Made by a program: the position numbers and the translations under genes. From sequence record MT682707.1: a DNA stretch of 39,305 bases. One strand, given 5' to 3'. Shown in pieces: positions 31,101 to 38,436 of this stretch. Position 1 is the stretch's first letter. Each line of letters opens with the position of its first letter. The notes under the pieces were generated by a model. It did no database searches. It saw nothing but the letters and a program-made list of their open reading frames with translations, and was not told the DNA's origin. The stretch comes from Escherichia phage vB_EcoP_SP7.

Positions 31101-32019
31101 TAGTCTGACTGGCAGTAAGCGTCGGTTCGATGACCGCTGGCTGAAGACCGCTGGTATCTCTGACGAGCAGTGGAAGGGCATTAAGTCCCTAATCCGTGAG
31201 TCAGTGACTCGTGGTCCAGACGGGAAGTACACCATCAAGGATAAGAAGGCGTTCAGTCAGGACCCAAGGGCTATGGACTTATGGCGTATGGGTGACACCA
31301 TCGCTGATGAAACGTTACTACGTCCTCATAAGCTGTCCAACATGGATGCAAAGGCTTATGGTCCTCTCGCTAAGACTGTCCTTCAGTTTAAGAACTTCGT
31401 CATCAAGTCCATCAATGGGCGTACCATGCGAACCTTCTATAACGCCACGAAGAACAACCGAGCGATGGATGCTGCTCTGTCCACTGTGATGTCTATGGGC
31501 CTTGCTGGTATCTACTACATGGCTCAGGCACACATCAAGGCTTACGCTATGCAGGATGGTCGTGACCGTGACTACCTCAAGCAAGCTCTTGACCCGACGA
31601 TGATTGGTTACGCGGCTCTGTCCCGTAGCTCACACTTGGGTGGGCCACTTGGGGTAGCTAACATTCTGGGTGGCATCGCTGGGTATGAGGACACCAAGAT
31701 GCTCCGTTCGTCTATACTACCTCGTTCGCCTACAGAGAAGCCTGAACGTGCCATCTCGTATGGTGCAGCTACAAGTGACCCTGTGATGAATGTCGTCGGT
31801 AACTTCTTGGAGCAGGTTCCAGCTTTCGGATATGCTGCTAACGTTGGCGCTTCGGCTTACAACTTGGCTGGCTACCTCAAGGCGGATACTCGGGTAAACG
31901 AGAGAGACTACATGACCGGGATGTATAACACCTTCCGTGAACTGGTTCCGAACGACCCACTTACTCAGAAGTTGCTACTGGGAACGTTTGAGGAGCAAGG
32001 TATCCACATCAAGGACTAA
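28132..32019 (+). CDS. Internal virion protein D (gene 16) with a non-T7 N-terminal domain
   Basis: Residues after about 250 are collinear with recalled T7 gp16 (RLEARETARN, DLVRSPTGMQSGASGK, FLEARNLFDSD, RRVNGDIAIM, FFAKNAYMG.QN.TEI.GM, WTK.LNGTTNYLLDA, DPTMI..AALSRSS, ELVPNDPLTQ). The first ~130 aa (GIRNNNPGNIR...) differ from the T7 SLT-type lytic transglycosylase module. Confidence 0.95.
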   Translation: MATRGIRNNNPGNIRVSKDQWEGMTGDDGAFVIFDSPESGVRALGKNLLSYGRQGYDSIEKIINRWAPPNENDTQAYIDSVVAATGIPATQSLDLSNPDTLSSLAQAISFHETGSRYNPEVYQKGVARALNGISPKTPPVSANVVDALTEGLKAKPKVALGENLPTAAGLNIEGQAPEAPNESFGEMFYKATGETMQERDDRSTWFGFGAATEAEVKNSMVGVAIRAGQTEDSLDVIGDVFNPTRWNNHKWTREELDQIRNAGVLPQYYGVITGGSPQNLTELINLALENQKLDQEKAKAGIGAQLAAGVIGAGVDPLTYVPIAGQVGKGGKLVNKMFTVAAQSGALAGVSEMARTSVAGGDAHVAEAILGGALFGGGMTAIADGLGRALGRNTNEFAGPATRLEARETARNVDGQDLSRLPIQEGEQTFSHQGVKFADVQNEPGSVRLEDGSILIGENPLNPKTRQVFDEVIEPERAAAGVNLGGLTEIGLKLLRSENPEIRGVAADLVRSPTGMQSGASGKIGTTASDVFERLRAVDHRFYNDIDDAVTEALKDPYFQTAFWRDSGAFRQDIYQRVSMAIEDVSGNLKAELTPGELKVYDLLKNQFDAKREMMENPAMFGRPDAKSIFPGSRFKGTYVPHVYSNQMKELYIKELGSPEALQEAIKKSWLTSYASRPEVKKRVDEALLEADPTLTPDGLAAAVYKYANDKAYGISHTEQFERSSVMEENINGLVGLENNSFLEARNLFDSDMSIVLPNGHTFSVNNLREWDMDKIVPAYNRRVNGDIAIMAGTGKTTKEMKDLVETMMNKAGDDGKLKGEVSTLRDTLKILTGRARRDGADDAAFATVMRTMTDLSFFAKNAYMGVQNLTEIGGMLARGNVRALLHGVPMFRDLAFRNKKVGASEIKDLHNVIFGKELDDSIRPSKQDVIDRLRSYSDLGRGAATALGTAKYYTGELAVRSPFTKVLNGTTNYLLDAGRQGFLSDIVEHSLTGSKRRFDDRWLKTAGISDEQWKGIKSLIRESVTRGPDGKYTIKDKKAFSQDPRAMDLWRMGDTIADETLLRPHKLSNMDAKAYGPLAKTVLQFKNFVIKSINGRTMRTFYNATKNNRAMDAALSTVMSMGLAGIYYMAQAHIKAYAMQDGRDRDYLKQALDPTMIGYAALSRSSHLGGPLGVANILGGIAGYEDTKMLRSSILPRSPTEKPERAISYGAATSDPVMNVVGNFLEQVPAFGYAANVGASAYNLAGYLKADTRVNERDYMTGMYNTFRELVPNDPLTQKLLLGTFEEQGIHIKD

Positions 32020-32037
32020 ACTATCACTATAGGAAAC
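32015..32037 (+). promoter_or_regulatory. Phage-RNAP promoter (phi17 position)
   Basis: ACTAAACTATCACTATAGGAAAC; +1 at 32032, followed by a GGAGAC/GTCTCC hairpin at 32038..32059. Confidence 0.85.
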
Positions 32038-34269: not shown

Positions 34270-34387
34270 GAGTGAGAACGGAAGTCGAAACAGAACTGGT
34301 GGTTGTGGAGGTAGAGGCTAACTATACGCTGACCAACGTATGTAATAACTTTGGGTCACGGACGACCCGCTTTAAACTGGAGGTTTT

Positions 34388-34582
34388 ATGATTGAGTTAG
34401 ACTTCAAGAATGAGGTCCTTAAAGCCTCTCCTATCGTCGGGACCGCTGCGGCTGATGGTGCCAGTCGGTTCTTCTTCGGGCTCACACTTAACGAATGGTT
34501 CTACGTTGCAGCTATCGCGTACACCGTTGTCCAGATTGGTGTGCTAGTCTATAAAACGATTAAAGGAGGTGGTAAAACATGA
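34388..34582 (+). CDS. Holin, class II (gene 17.5)
   Basis: DFKNEVLKASPIVGTAAADGASRFFFGLTLNEWFYVAAIAYTVVQIG matches recalled T7 gp17.5. Confidence 0.9.
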   Translation: MIELDFKNEVLKASPIVGTAAADGASRFFFGLTLNEWFYVAAIAYTVVQIGVLVYKTIKGGGKT

Positions 34583-34842
34583 CGCAGATGGACTTAGAGA
34601 AGTTCCTCTTAATGCTGGATACTGAACGTGCTCGACTCATGCTGCAAGACCTGCGGGATGACTCTAAGCGTTCACCTCAGCTCTACAACGCCATTGAGAA
34701 GCTGCTTGCTCGTCACAACTTTGTGTTAAGCAAGGTGTCTGTTGACGAGAAGACTCTGGCTGATATGGAGGCCCTGAACGCAGAGTACGATAAGGTGCTC
34801 TCAGCTACGGAAGATAATGACACTGGGTATGGAGTGCAGTAA
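34579..34842 (+). CDS. Terminase small subunit (gene 18)
   Basis: FLLMLDT..A..ML.DL.....RSPQLYNAI motif and position match recalled T7 gp18. Confidence 0.85.
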   Translation: MTQMDLEKFLLMLDTERARLMLQDLRDDSKRSPQLYNAIEKLLARHNFVLSKVSVDEKTLADMEALNAEYDKVLSATEDNDTGYGVQ

Positions 34843-34855
34843 ATCTCTTAAGTGT

Positions 34856-34900
34856 TAGACTCAAGGTCATTACTATATGTAGTGGCCTTTATGGTTAACA
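34856..34900 (+). promoter_or_regulatory. RNase III processing site (R18.5-like)
   Basis: TAGACTCAAGGTCATTACTATATGTAGTGGCCTTTATGGTTAACA; conserved element in the same position as T7 R18.5. Confidence 0.7.
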
Positions 34901-34952
34901 CTAACTAGTGGAGGCGACTCTACGTGAAATCTGATAAACCGGGAGGGCAACT

Positions 34953-35402
34953 ATGCTCGAATTTTTAAAGAGAGCGGCTCCGTGGTTACTTGCAGCAGTG
35001 ATGTTTGCTGGTGGCTACCACACCGCTAACAATAAGTGGGAGGCTAAGGTCAATGCAGAATACACCTCGAATCTTAAGGCATCGGAAGATACAAGGCTTG
35101 CTGTCCAAGCTGAAGTCAACAAGGTGTCCAAACGGTTTCAGGACGAAATGTCCTCGCTGGAAGGCAGCACTGATAGGATTATTGCTGACCTTCAGTCTGA
35201 CAATAAGCGGTTGCGCATCCGAGTCAAACCAACGAGTGGAACCACGCAAAGTGACGGTCGATGCGTCATTGATGGTTACGCCGAACTTGACGAACGAGAT
35301 GCTAAACGTCTTATCTCCATCGGACTGAAAGGGGACGCTTGGATTAAGACCCTTCAGGACACTGTGAGAGCCTTGCAGCAAGAGAGGGGGAGTAATGATT
35401 AG
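34953..35402 (+). CDS. Rz-like i-spanin (gene 18.5)
   Basis: MLEFL N-terminus with a transmembrane segment, then LEGSTDRIIADLQSDNKRLRIRVK and DERDAKRLI..KGDAWI..LQDT matching recalled T7 gp18.5. Confidence 0.85.
   Translation: MLEFLKRAAPWLLAAVMFAGGYHTANNKWEAKVNAEYTSNLKASEDTRLAVQAEVNKVSKRFQDEMSSLEGSTDRIIADLQSDNKRLRIRVKPTSGTTQSDGRCVIDGYAELDERDAKRLISIGLKGDAWIKTLQDTVRALQQERGSND
35053..35328 (+). CDS. Rz1-like o-spanin lipoprotein embedded in the +1 frame of Rz (start uncertain)
   Basis: +1 frame ORF inside Rz with a lipobox-like LTISGC followed by ASES...SLMV.PNLT.EMLNV; start chosen at the internal ATG 35053, but 35005 is also possible. Confidence 0.4.
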   Translation: MQNTPRILRHRKIQGLLSKLKSTRCPNGFRTKCPRWKAALIGLLLTFSLTISGCASESNQRVEPRKVTVDASLMVTPNLTNEMLNVLSPSD

Positions 35403-35565
35403 AGTTAAATGCTTAAAGACTGACTCAAATGGGATTCTTGAGGTGGGTTCAGTCTACTGGGTTGACTCGCTTGAAGACATTGACTCCTATGTGCATATTA
35501 GAGGAGGGCGATACATTGGTATGTTCCCATCTAAGTGGTTTGAGCCTAAGGAGGAGAACCATTGA
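35395..35565 (+). CDS. Small hypothetical ORF (56 aa) bridging the Rz stop and the terminase start
   Basis: ATG overlaps the Rz stop; ORF ends 1 nt after the TTG start of gene 19. No T7 counterpart known to me. Confidence 0.3.
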
Positions 35566-37325
35566 GTAAAGACTTAGTGGCGCGTCAGGCGCTAATGACA
35601 GCACGTATGAAGGCAGACTTCGTGTTCTTCCTGTTCGTCCTATGGAAAGCCTTGTCACTCCCAGTCCCGACTCGCTGTCAGATTGACATGGCGAAGAAAC
35701 TATCGGCTGGGGACAACAGGCGTTTCATCCTACAGGCGTTCCGTGGTATCGGGAAGTCCTTCATTACATGTGCCTTCGTGGTCTGGAAGCTATGGAACAA
35801 CCCAGACTTGAAGTTCATGATTGTGTCGGCCTCAAAGGAACGAGCCGATGCGAACTCCATCTTCATCAAGCGAATCATCGACCTCATGCCACAGCTTCAG
35901 GAACTCAAACCTAAGCAGGGACAGCGAGATGCGGTTATCAGCTTCGATGTTGGGCCAGCAAAGCCAGACCACTCACCTTCGGTTAAGTCCGTTGGTATCA
36001 CTGGTCAGTTGACTGGTAGTCGTGCTGACATCCTTATTGCAGATGACGTTGAGGTTCCAAACAACTCAGCGACTCAGGCTGCGCGAGACCGACTGTCAGA
36101 GCTTGTTAAAGAGTTCGACGCTATTCTGAAGCCTGGAGGTACAATCATCTATCTGGGTACTCCTCAGAACGAGATGACCCTGTATCGTGAGTTGGAAGGC
36201 CGCGGGTACACCACTACTATCTGGCCAGCTCGTTATCCACGCGATAAGAAGGACTGGCAGTCTTACGGAGACCGTCTGGCTCCTATGCTTCAGGCAGAGC
36301 TTGAAGAGGACCCTGAGTCCTTCTACTGGCGTCCAACAGATGAGGTACGATTCGATGATACGGACCTGAAGGAACGTGAGCTGTCATACGGTAAAGCTGG
36401 CTTCGCTCTACAGTTCATGCTTAACCCGAACCTGAGTGATGCTGAGAAGTACCCTCTGAAGCTCCGTGACCTTATCGTAGCCGACTTGGACCCAGAGTCA
36501 AGCCCAATGGTCTACCAATGGCTGCCGAACCCTCAGAACAAGCGTGAGGACGTTCCTAACGTTGGACTCATGGGTGACTCGTACCACACGTATCAGACTG
36601 TAGGTTCTGCGTTCAGCTCATACACCCAGAAGATTCTGGTCATTGACCCCAGTGGTCGGGGTAAGGATGAAACTGGTTATGCGGTACTGTACCAGCTCAA
36701 CGGCTACATCTTCGCTATGGAAGTTGGTGGTATGCGTGGTGGATATGAAGACTCTACGCTGGAAGCCTTGGCTAAGATTGGTCGTAAGTGGAAGGTCAAC
36801 GAATACGTCATTGAGGGTAACTTCGGTGATGGTATGTACCTTGAGTTATTCAAGCCTGTTGCGGCCCGTACCCATCCTGCTGCTGTAACTGAAGTGAAGA
36901 GTAAGGGTCAGAAGGAACTCCGAATCTGTGACGTTCTGGAGCCTATCATGGGGTCTCACCGACTTATCGTCAACGCTGCTGCTATCGTCCAAGACTACCA
37001 GACAGCCTCTGACAAGGACGGTGTGCGTAACCCTATCTACTCTCTCTTCTATCAGATGACCCGTATATCTCGTGAACGTGGAGCCTTGGCACACGATGAC
37101 CGACTTGATGCGCTGGCTATCGGTGTACAGTTCTTCGTTGAGTCTATGGCTAAGGATGCCAACAAAGGTGAACGTGAAGTCACTGAGGAGTGGCTGGAGG
37201 AACAGATGGAGAACCCACGGAAGGGCTTCGAGTCCATCCACACTGAGTTCTGGGACAATGGTGTCCGGGTAACTCACGATACGGACGACGAGCCGGGACT
37301 AGGGTCCTACGTTACGTTCCACTAG
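35562..37325 (+). CDS. Terminase large subunit (gene 19); TTG start
   Basis: [45 protein letters not shown] (Walker A), [83 protein letters not shown] match recalled T7 gp19; AAGGAGG RBS before TTG 35562. Confidence 0.97.
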
Positions 37326-37334
37326 CTGAATGAA

Positions 37335-37383
37335 TAACTATAGGTGAAAGCTGCATGAATACGCGGTTAGTAACCTATAGTTA
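37335..37383. repeat. Perfect 11-bp inverted repeat (TAACTATAGGT ... ACCTATAGTTA) between gene 19 and the rightmost promoter
   Basis: Arms at 37335..37345 and 37373..37383, separated by 27 nt; each arm contains the promoter-core-like CTATAGG; CTGTTTT follows at about 37399..37406. Confidence 0.6.
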
Positions 37384-37419: not shown

Positions 37420-37442
37420 ACTTAACTATCACTATAGGGAAG
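37420..37442 (+). promoter_or_regulatory. Phage-RNAP promoter (phiOR position)
   Basis: ACTTAACTATCACTATAGGGAAG; +1 at 37437. Confidence 0.85.
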
Positions 37443-38218: not shown

Positions 38219-38277
38219 CACTACCTACAGTCTAACTACCTACAGTCTAACTACCTACAGTCTAACTACCTACAGTC
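38219..38277. repeat. 15-bp tandem repeat array (CTACCTACAGTCTAA, about 3.7 copies), with further CCTACAG copies to about 38330
   Basis: Directly visible; analogous to the short repeat arrays flanking the T7 terminal repeat. Confidence 0.85.
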
Positions 38278-38436
38278 ATCGACCATCGGTAATGCCGCTA
38301 CCTACAGTCAGAGACCTACAGTTAATAGACACAAAGGATATAGACTTAATGTCTAAGACATGTTAGTCAAAGATTATATCCTCTTACACCATGGGGGGCC
38401 GATGCTAGCTCAATCAATATTATTTCAAATTACCTA

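Follow-up and report, generated by a model that had tools for sequence, protein, structure and literature searches.

A small, optional gene for a predicted SH3-fold protein, located between spanin and terminase in Escherichia phage vB_EcoP_SP7

Small optional open reading frames (ORFs) with no assigned function are common in phage genomes, and small phage proteins that bind other proteins have repeatedly proved to be take-over or counter-defence factors. In phage T7, gene 18.5 ends at 37348 and gene 19 starts at 37370, and the 21-nt gap between them holds no gene. Outside T7 this slot is not always empty, and Kayfunaviruses other than the one studied here hold genes there, for example gene 18.8 of CLB_P1. 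A small SH3-like phage protein has been described in another setting. This is TifA (Orf65) of Enterococcus phage phi47, of which the N-terminal domain is reported to be SH3-like with a myosin-I SH3 domain as the top match, and which binds type IV restriction enzymes directly and thereby inhibits them (PMC11322646).

Escherichia phage vB_EcoP_SP7 was announced with a genome of 39,305 bp and a G+C content of 50.1%, and its closest relative was ST31 (PMC7471389). The window analysed here is the whole 39,305-nt stretch, which is the complete genome. The phage is a Kayfunavirus, and its genome matched Kayfunavirus genomes (K1F-like, T7 group) with 94–97% nucleotide identity. We investigated a 56-aa ORF in the interval that is empty in T7. 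Its position at 35395–35565 on the + strand, its amino acid sequence and the lack of a T7 counterpart, all given in the initial annotation, were confirmed. The ORF product is 100% identical to UniProt A0A7D5JH21 (56 aa, vB_EcoP_SP7, "uncharacterized protein", with a structure entry in BFVD), and the ORF is already annotated as a hypothetical protein in SP7. The features of the locus are as follows.

32016..32033, + strand: closest phage-RNAP promoter on the upstream side, CTAAACTATCACTATAGG, followed by another copy only at about 37421–37438
34953..35402, + strand: i-spanin gene Rz, homologue of gene 18.5; stop TAG at 35400–35402; its last codons (ERGSND and stop) come from the left end of the cassette
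35053..35328, + strand: embedded o-spanin gene Rz1, homologue of gene 18.7, with the lipobox LTISGC; its position matches the annotated o-spanin of Pipis
35384..35546, + strand: 163-nt cassette (Shine-Dalgarno sequence, ATG and SH3-coding codons) that is missing from most Kayfunaviruses, from megablast and the Pipis comparison
35384..35392, + strand: Shine-Dalgarno sequence of the small ORF, GAGGGGGAG, 2 nt 5′ of the ATG, from anti-SD duplex energy
35395..35565, + strand: small ORF of 56 aa for a predicted soluble 6.5-kDa protein with a pI of 5.5; ATG at 35395–35397, TGA at 35563–35565
35398..35547, + strand: codons 2–51 of the small ORF, conserved core with a predicted SH3 fold (five strands, RT-like loop at residues 7–19, 3-10 turn at 46–48)
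35548..35565, + strand: codons 52–56 and stop of the small ORF (KEENH and stop), a putative dual-use tail with the terminase Shine-Dalgarno sequence AAGGAGG (35548–35554), a 7-nt spacer and ATTGA (35561–35565)
35562..37325, + strand: large terminase gene with a TTG start at 35562–35564; PF22530 (Terminase-T7_RNaseH-like)

Both overlaps that had been reported for the ORF are present. Its start lies within the end of Rz (8-nt overlap, with the Rz stop at 35400–35402), and its stop overlaps the start of the terminase gene, the TGA and the TTG sharing ATTGA. The ORF product does not have the hydrophobic N-terminus of an o-spanin (max KD(15) 0.64), and the real o-spanin is the separate gene inside Rz (35053–35328, LTISGC).

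Spurious ORFs of 50–130 aa are numerous near the locus in the ORF list. Thus, the length of the small ORF is within chance, and the ORF is recognised as a gene by its Shine-Dalgarno (SD) sequence, conservation, selection and fold. The SD sequence GAGGGGGAG pairs with the 16S anti-SD at −11.1 kcal/mol, which is in the top ~1% of positions (window mean −3.2, 1st percentile −10.8 kcal/mol), and its strength is similar to that of the neighbouring genes. Furthermore, an SD sequence stands upstream of the ORF in every copy, and the homologues at L007, L009 and L010 have a perfect TAAGGAGG 4 nt 5′ of the ATG.

The homologues formed 17 clusters among 5.8 billion proteins, all of them 46–62 aa long and none with a Pfam domain, and in all about 20 protein clusters keep the frame. 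A profile search of 1.84 billion proteins gave five stand-alone representatives. In addition, neither the ORF protein nor any of the 16 family members scanned belonged to a family in Pfam, PHROGs or NCBIfam. Several other matches were rejected. For instance, the matches of 1,400–1,600 aa in the exhaustive profile search were spurious, being DUF5122 beta-propeller repeat proteins that shared only an 18-residue hairpin motif; the same search also gave a 370-aa repeat protein. A PHROG 'MazF-like' match (E = 0.24 over 32 residues) was noise, and the match at IMG/VR locus L022 was a spurious 12-residue motif within unrelated ORFs. The 251-aa protein P0015 contains two repeats that are weakly similar to the ORF family (E = 3e-4).

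The selection analysis covered 50 alignable codons, and dN/dS was 0.03–0.13 for most pairs. Compared with the Drulisvirus homologues, pS was 0.93–0.99 (saturated) and pN was 0.18–0.28. The variable columns were distributed as 9/9/28 over the three codon positions, and the excess of synonymous changes between the SP7 ORF and the distant homologues gave binomial P values of 1e-6 to 1e-9. The frame is therefore conserved under dN/dS well below 1, as is the case for protein-coding sequence. The remaining five frames carry stops in all homologues, and two overlapping ORFs, of 46 aa in the +2 frame and of 69 aa on the minus strand, were rejected for this reason. Conservation of the frame in relatives had been proposed as a check by the initial annotation, and we found the frame kept in divergent homologues in which the other frames have stops. 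Its suggestion of a genuine micro-gene was borne out by purifying selection, by occurrence in three genomic contexts and by a confident SH3-fold model. The sequence evidence strongly supports the view that the 56-codon ORF is a real gene.

Between 34300 and 35800, the + strand showed no sigma-70 promoter, and none of the terminator candidates was convincing. The 11-mers of the phage promoter motif recur eight times across the window, including 32016–32023 and 37424–37428. Since the nearest phage promoters are at ~32016 and ~37421 and none is internal, the ORF should lie on the late gene 17–19 transcript. A candidate phage promoter at 34865–34885 was rejected, because the true consensus is CTAAACTATCACTATAGG and the site lies in a stable hairpin. 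Late transcription of the ORF would start at the gene-17 promoter, and its translation would use the SD sequence of the ORF itself, while the Drulisvirus copy would be made together with DNA-metabolism genes.

The ORF is rare. Megablast split nearly all of the 304 related records into two aligned pieces, which together span 638 nt where SP7 has 801 nt, so that 163 nt are missing. A tblastn search of 50,697 phage records found the ORF in only two of these 304 records (Baskent_phicoli_1 and Bas105) and in three Drulisvirus records. Pipis, for which the compared sequence was caagaTAAGGAGGtgacgcaTTGA, is an exact empty site. Its junction reads caagaTAAGGAGGTGACGCATTGAgt, and its Rz ends with KEVTH and a TGA that overlaps the terminase TTG. 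In SP7 and Baskent, the cassette is placed between "caaga" and "TAAGGAGG". The codons that end Rz in Pipis end the small ORF instead in the carriers (PKEVTH and stop in Baskent, PKEENH and stop in SP7), and the C-terminus of Rz is QQDKEVTH in Pipis but QQERGSND in SP7. In addition, the G+C content of the ORF is 42.7%, compared with 50.1% for the genome. The flanking genes terS, Rz and terL of SP7 are 94–97% identical to those of L007 and L010, whereas the ORF is just 81% (L007) or 75% (L010) identical.

Where Kayfunavirus contigs from metagenomes carry the ORF, it directly precedes the terminase gene in every case. The content between Rz and the ORF varies: there is nothing in L009, a 52-aa ORF in L010, a 263-aa ORF in L007 and a 141-aa relative of the 263-aa ORF in Bas105. 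The 263-aa gene is also found where the small ORF is absent, namely in P762 and in CLB_P1, where it is gene 18.8. In the Drulisviruses AV102, KX1 and Kpph9, the homologue (54–72% identity) lies between the genes for a 5′-3′ exonuclease and endonuclease VII. Most Drulisviruses, including KP34, do not have the ORF, and others have HNH endonuclease genes or small ORFs in the slot. A third lineage, with 42–47% identity, consists of ~140-kb uncultured phages distantly related to Vequintavirinae, and there the neighbours are nucleotide-metabolism (NrdD) and homing-endonuclease (HNH) genes. No relative was found in the genomes of 185,579 bacterial and archaeal species (one genome each). The Rz–terminase interval thus shows the two marks of an accessory hot spot, an empty site (Pipis and ~300 others) and alternative cargo (CLB_P1, P762, Bas105, L007 and L010), and the same pattern is repeated in the Drulisvirus slot. 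These comparisons show that the ORF is an optional gene that has been exchanged horizontally across three unrelated enterobacterial phage lineages. The interval would be a recombination hot spot that hosts the 163-nt cassette, and the SD-like direct repeats around the cassette (TAAGGAGG ... TAAGGAGG) are plausible recombination points for its gain and loss.

The terminase TTG is preceded by the SD sequence AAGGAGG (−12.0 kcal/mol), while the next in-frame ATG at 35595, which is the start in some annotations, has no SD sequence (−2.5 kcal/mol). This backs the TTG start of the Kayfunavirus terminase. With AAGGAGG inside the ORF and ATTGA across its stop, the junction has the architecture of a coupling element. 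However, phages that lack the ORF have exactly the same TTG, AAGGAGG and ATTGA overlap as those that carry it, and in them Rz is the upstream gene. Thus, the TTG start and the overlap are ancestral and do not need the ORF. Furthermore, the stop (TAA) of the ORF in the IMG/VR relative L016 is 2 nt before the TTG, which means that the overlap is not obligatory. In KX1, the ORF uses the resident SD sequence and ATG of endonuclease VII and supplies endonuclease VII with a new SD sequence (GAGGAG, in the F-E-E codons) and an overlapping GTGA start. RNA folding placed the TTG in a short hairpin whether or not the ORF was present, and the junction RNA folds were no more stable than shuffled sequence (z = −0.25 to −0.56). 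The ORF residues after WFE are variable and have low pLDDT, and this fits constraint by the downstream SD sequence rather than protein function.

The initial annotation had offered a translational-coupling device for the terminase as another possibility. One part of it stood, as the layout of the junction is preserved and the last codons (PKEENH or PKEVTH) form the terminase SD sequence and spacer. As the reason for which the ORF exists, it was not supported, since Pipis and other phages have the same TTG, SD sequence and ATTGA behind Rz. The cassette seems merely to preserve the ancestral overlap and to encode the ribosome-binding site of the terminase in its own last codons. Coupling itself may well take place, but it does not account for the presence of the ORF. 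The 3′ end of the ORF would serve as SD sequence, spacer and stop/start overlap for the essential next gene (the terminase gene or, in Drulisvirus, the endonuclease VII gene), and gain or loss of the cassette would thereby be non-polar.

The ORF protein (6.5 kDa) has a net charge of −2 and no hydrophobic segment, so it is probably soluble and cytoplasmic. AlphaFold2 gave a pLDDT of 62 with seven close homologues and of 90.1 with 16 diverse family members; because the family is so small, these 16 sequences are the whole alignment behind the final model. Five strands are predicted, with a long loop at residues 7–19 and a helical turn at 46–48 ahead of the last strand, and the model contains the fold-level elements of SH3 (five-stranded barrel, RT, n-Src, distal hairpin and 3-10 helix). 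However, no Pfam SH3 model matched the ORF protein or the 16 family members at E ≤ 10, and a sequence-profile search of the PDB gave nothing significant (best E = 0.25; STAC3 SH3 domain, E = 1.6). The hhalign comparison with eight SH3 sequences gave only a faint signal (P = 0.0026, probability 11.6%), with a 12-residue ORF segment in register with G-x-x-GYIPSNYV. In this alignment, S31 stands at the position of the Trp of the WW dipeptide (Src W118) and M43 at that of Src Y131, and our own strand mapping would place the ALYDY tyrosines (Src Y90 and Y92) at C6 and K8. P45 and the aromatic W48 are kept and invariant. The canonical ligand pocket is thus partly kept, and classical PxxP binding is not implied. 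The invariant residues are M1, C6, D10, Y21, V23, D30, V33, G42, M43, P45, W48 and F49; on the model they seem to comprise core positions and a cluster on the presumed SH3 ligand face, with acidic loop residues alongside. Taken together, the model indicates a fold of SH3 type outside the SH3 sequence family, and the proteins form a tiny, previously unclassified family of free-standing phage proteins with this predicted fold and no match in Pfam, PHROGs or NCBIfam.

We think it likely, with a probability of about 0.6, that the ORF is a genuine and dispensable accessory gene that is expressed late from its own SD sequence, encodes an SH3-barrel protein binder and resides on a non-polar cassette. 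The mildly acidic, soluble 56-aa protein would fold as a free-standing five-stranded barrel of SH3 type and would act stoichiometrically as a protein- or peptide-binding module whose target is a protein of the host or of the phage. Binding would most likely occur at the counterpart of the SH3 ligand face, where C6, M43, P45 and W48 lie with D10 and D30 on its flanks. Most probably, the protein would modulate a host factor, in take-over or in counter-defence, like other small optional phage proteins. The optional, mobile and low-GC nature of the gene fits a host-interaction accessory factor. Nevertheless, the SH3 fold by itself gives no function, a late gene at the last-entering end of the genome is poorly placed against early-acting defences, and the nuclease neighbours in two lineages fit a role in DNA processing equally well.

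Other readings of the locus were also considered. That the ORF is not a gene at all, and is a chance ORF in the spacer or the leftover of a larger gene, is suggested by its shortness, by the lack of a Pfam, PHROGs or NCBIfam family and by the many chance ORFs of this size in the window. But a frame kept at about 43–54% identity in other phage lineages, saturated synonymous sites beside a constrained protein sequence, an SD sequence in every copy and a confident fold leave this reading with a negligible probability, and it is already effectively refuted. It is also very unlikely that the ORF is a pure coupling device, in which ribosomes ending at its TGA would re-initiate at the weak TTG and the peptide would be unimportant. 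The ATTGA overlap and the terminase SD sequence within the final codons are what such a device would have, the TTG lies in an 8-bp hairpin (AUUGAGU/ACUUAGU) that an upstream ribosome might have to melt, and the overlap type recurs in Drulisvirus (GTGA with endonuclease VII). Yet the same TTG, SD sequence, overlap and hairpin occur behind Rz in ~300 relatives that have no ORF, the L016 stop falls short of the TTG, the terminase SD sequence is strong by itself, and the hairpin region does not exceed its shuffles. Furthermore, strong purifying selection acts on the amino acids in all three unrelated contexts, and in two of these no terminase gene lies downstream.

The remaining readings concern what a real protein would do. 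An accessory of DNA processing, whose barrel binds or tunes the downstream nuclease (terminase, or endonuclease VII in Drulisvirus) or binds DNA or RNA itself, is a reasonable rival, and small barrels such as KOW, Tudor and Sso7d-like proteins do bind DNA or RNA. However, we consider it unlikely, being weakened by the fact that the two nucleases are unrelated proteins and by general hot spots: the adjacency is explained more simply by insertion at hot spots, and the Drulisvirus slot also takes HNH genes. Moreover, most relatives manage without the gene, and a pI of 5.5 with a net charge of −2 argues against direct binding of nucleic acid. In counter-defence, the small protein would bind and neutralise a component of host immunity, which late proteins may have triggered. 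This reading falls within the accessory-gene explanation and is not truly separate from it, and we put it forward only tentatively. The gene is optional, rare and of low GC, enterobacterial phages have exchanged it, its slot is variable, its alleles are far more divergent than the flanks, and TifA provides the precedent of an SH3-like phage protein that inhibits type IV restriction by direct binding. On the other hand, the 27-kb part of phi47 presumed to hold tifA has no similarity to the ORF (best E = 0.44), and the gene is placed late in Kayfunavirus. In addition, a diversifying pattern is common in anti-defence genes, and the low dN/dS of the ORF is not diversifying. A long shot would be that a eukaryote-like SH3 module travels as a mobile cassette, inserts immediately upstream of essential nuclease genes and is co-translated with the terminase or endonuclease VII in order to bind them or a host sensor of them. 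It might, for example, hide the large terminase from immune receptors that sense terminases, or time nuclease activity. If this were true, the module would represent a new class of chaperone or cloak that acts co-translationally and is borne on a self-contained, non-polar gene cassette.

With the dispensable accessory gene as the preferred explanation, the points that we regard as settled from the sequence comparisons are that the ORF is a real gene, that the TTG start of the terminase is independent of it, and that it belongs to a tiny, unclassified family with a predicted SH3 fold across three lineages. The ORF adds a further candidate to the small binders of host or phage proteins, and it opens no long-standing question. 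The locus also offers a clean case in which a T7-type phage may take up or lose a gene at ribosome-binding-site repeats and leave the expression of the essential downstream gene undisturbed.

The ORF protein differs from the canonical SH3 domains (SH3_1 and clan SH3; yeast Myo3, c-Src and Nbp2) in that it has no Pfam SH3 match and in that the ALYDY tyrosines and the ligand-binding Trp are replaced (C6, K8 and S31). Furthermore, canonical SH3 domains are modules of signalling proteins, whereas the ORF product is a free-standing phage protein. TifA resembles the ORF protein, as myosin-I SH3 domains are the top matches for both. However, TifA is a two-domain protein of strongly acidic composition (21% D+E, compared with 16% D+E in the ORF protein), and it comes from another host phylum and another genomic position. 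A search with the ORF-family profile against the six-frame ORFs of phi47 30000–57289, the presumed tifA half, gave a best E of 0.44. TifA is thus best taken as an analogy and not as a member of the same family.

Like morons of the Hendrix type, the ORF is an extra gene that is present in some relatives only and has a deviating (lower) GC content. The classical moron has its own promoter and terminator; the SP7 ORF, with neither found in 34300–35800, would use the resident late transcript, and SP7 is a strictly lytic phage. The 4-nt stop/start overlap and the SD sequence in the upstream coding sequence are shared with coupled overlapping phage gene pairs (ATGA, TTGA or GTGA), but the SP7 overlap appears to be inherited from the ancestral Rz–terminase junction and kept by the insertion. 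Finally, gene 18.8 of CLB_P1 (263 aa, 'putative protease', phrog_17779) occupies the same slot between Rz (18.5/18.7) and the terminase gene (19) and is also optional. The two genes occur together in some contigs (L007), and Bas105 has a shortened form of 18.8. However, the gene 18.8 protein is unrelated to the small ORF, each gene occurs without the other, and the small ORF is always the terminase-proximal one.

The terminase large subunit gene of Baskent_phicoli_1 (a Kayfunavirus locus carrying the small ORF, L001) was annotated from a downstream ATG at 2197 rather than from the TTG at 2164. The counterparts of these two starts in the window are TTG 35562 and ATG 35595, the TTG being located 33 nt upstream. 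We found that the Shine-Dalgarno (SD) strength was -12.0 kcal/mol for the TTG versus -2.5 kcal/mol for the downstream ATG. In addition, the TTG is conserved and was chosen as the start in the annotations of Pipis and Bas105. In Baskent_phicoli_1, the gene as annotated probably lacks its first 11 codons. Furthermore, the TTG is taken in by a short hairpin, AUUGAGU-aaag-ACUUAGU (window 35560-35580; 1997-2017 of locus L003), which was found both with and without the small ORF. This hairpin could make initiation dependent on an upstream ribosome that terminates, but the stability of the hairpin region was not significantly higher than that of shuffled sequence.

At the other end of the small ORF, the SD of the cassette includes a run of GGGGG in the window (35386-35390) but GGGGGG in Baskent_phicoli_1 (1984-1989 of L001). 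This difference of one base shifts the frame of Rz, and the protein ends with ERGSND* in the window and with DRGE* in Baskent_phicoli_1. Therefore, the C-terminus of Rz is tolerant of change.

The slot between Rz and terminase that holds the small ORF also holds a second optional gene, gene 18.8 or its shorter version:

CLB_P1 (L026) 701-1492, 263-aa gene 18.8, annotated as 'putative protease'
Metagenomic contig L007 1700-2491, 263-aa optional gene
Bas105 (L002) 1002-1424, 141-aa version of gene 18.8

The gene 18.8 product matched phrog_17779, which is uncharacterised. Its relatives, at 28-36% identity, were found in Salmonella/Shigella phages of ~72 kb and among Aeromonas phages, where some carry a collagen-like annotation.

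In the Drulisviruses, the slot between the exonuclease and endonuclease VII genes holds a small-ORF homologue in KX1 and AV102, and HNH homing-endonuclease genes in other members (for example, PWKp9B, vB_Kpn_K24PH164C1, AttikonH4, and Kp_Pokalde_001). This slot may be a hot spot of homing or recombination. A homologue is also present in Klebsiella phage Kpph9 (3001-3165 of L006), but it is missing from the features annotated in the GenBank record, of which there are just 24. A 251-aa metagenomic protein (P0015) has two copies of a longer domain, and the N-terminal hairpin of this domain, VKCVRADGNGLLRVGASYLV, resembles the first 23 residues of the small ORF (E = 3e-4). P0015 may represent a distant relative of the small-ORF fold, in expanded form, from a high-GC organism or phage.

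Three further features were found in the window:

34851-34902, stable RNA hairpin between terS (34579-34842) and Rz (from 34953), with an 11-bp perfect stem in the GGUCAUUACUA/UAGUGGCCUU region
~1045, 4587, 6490, 7482, 9945, 16369, 19192, 20192, 24740, 32016, and 37421, recurrent motif (C)CTAAACTATCACTATAGG
38221-38310, tandem array near the right genome end, with a period of ~15 nt and CTACCTACAGTC in at least 5 copies

For the 116 nt between terS and Rz, the folding energy was -35.2 kcal/mol, with z = -3.55 relative to shuffled sequence. The hairpin may be the equivalent of the R18.5 RNase III processing site of T7, because its position agrees with that of R18.5. The recurrent motif presumably represents the promoter consensus for the phage RNA polymerase of SP7, a Kayfunavirus, and its positions were used only for assigning the small ORF to the late transcript. 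Finally, the right-end array is reminiscent of T7, where short repeat arrays lie near the concatemer junctions.
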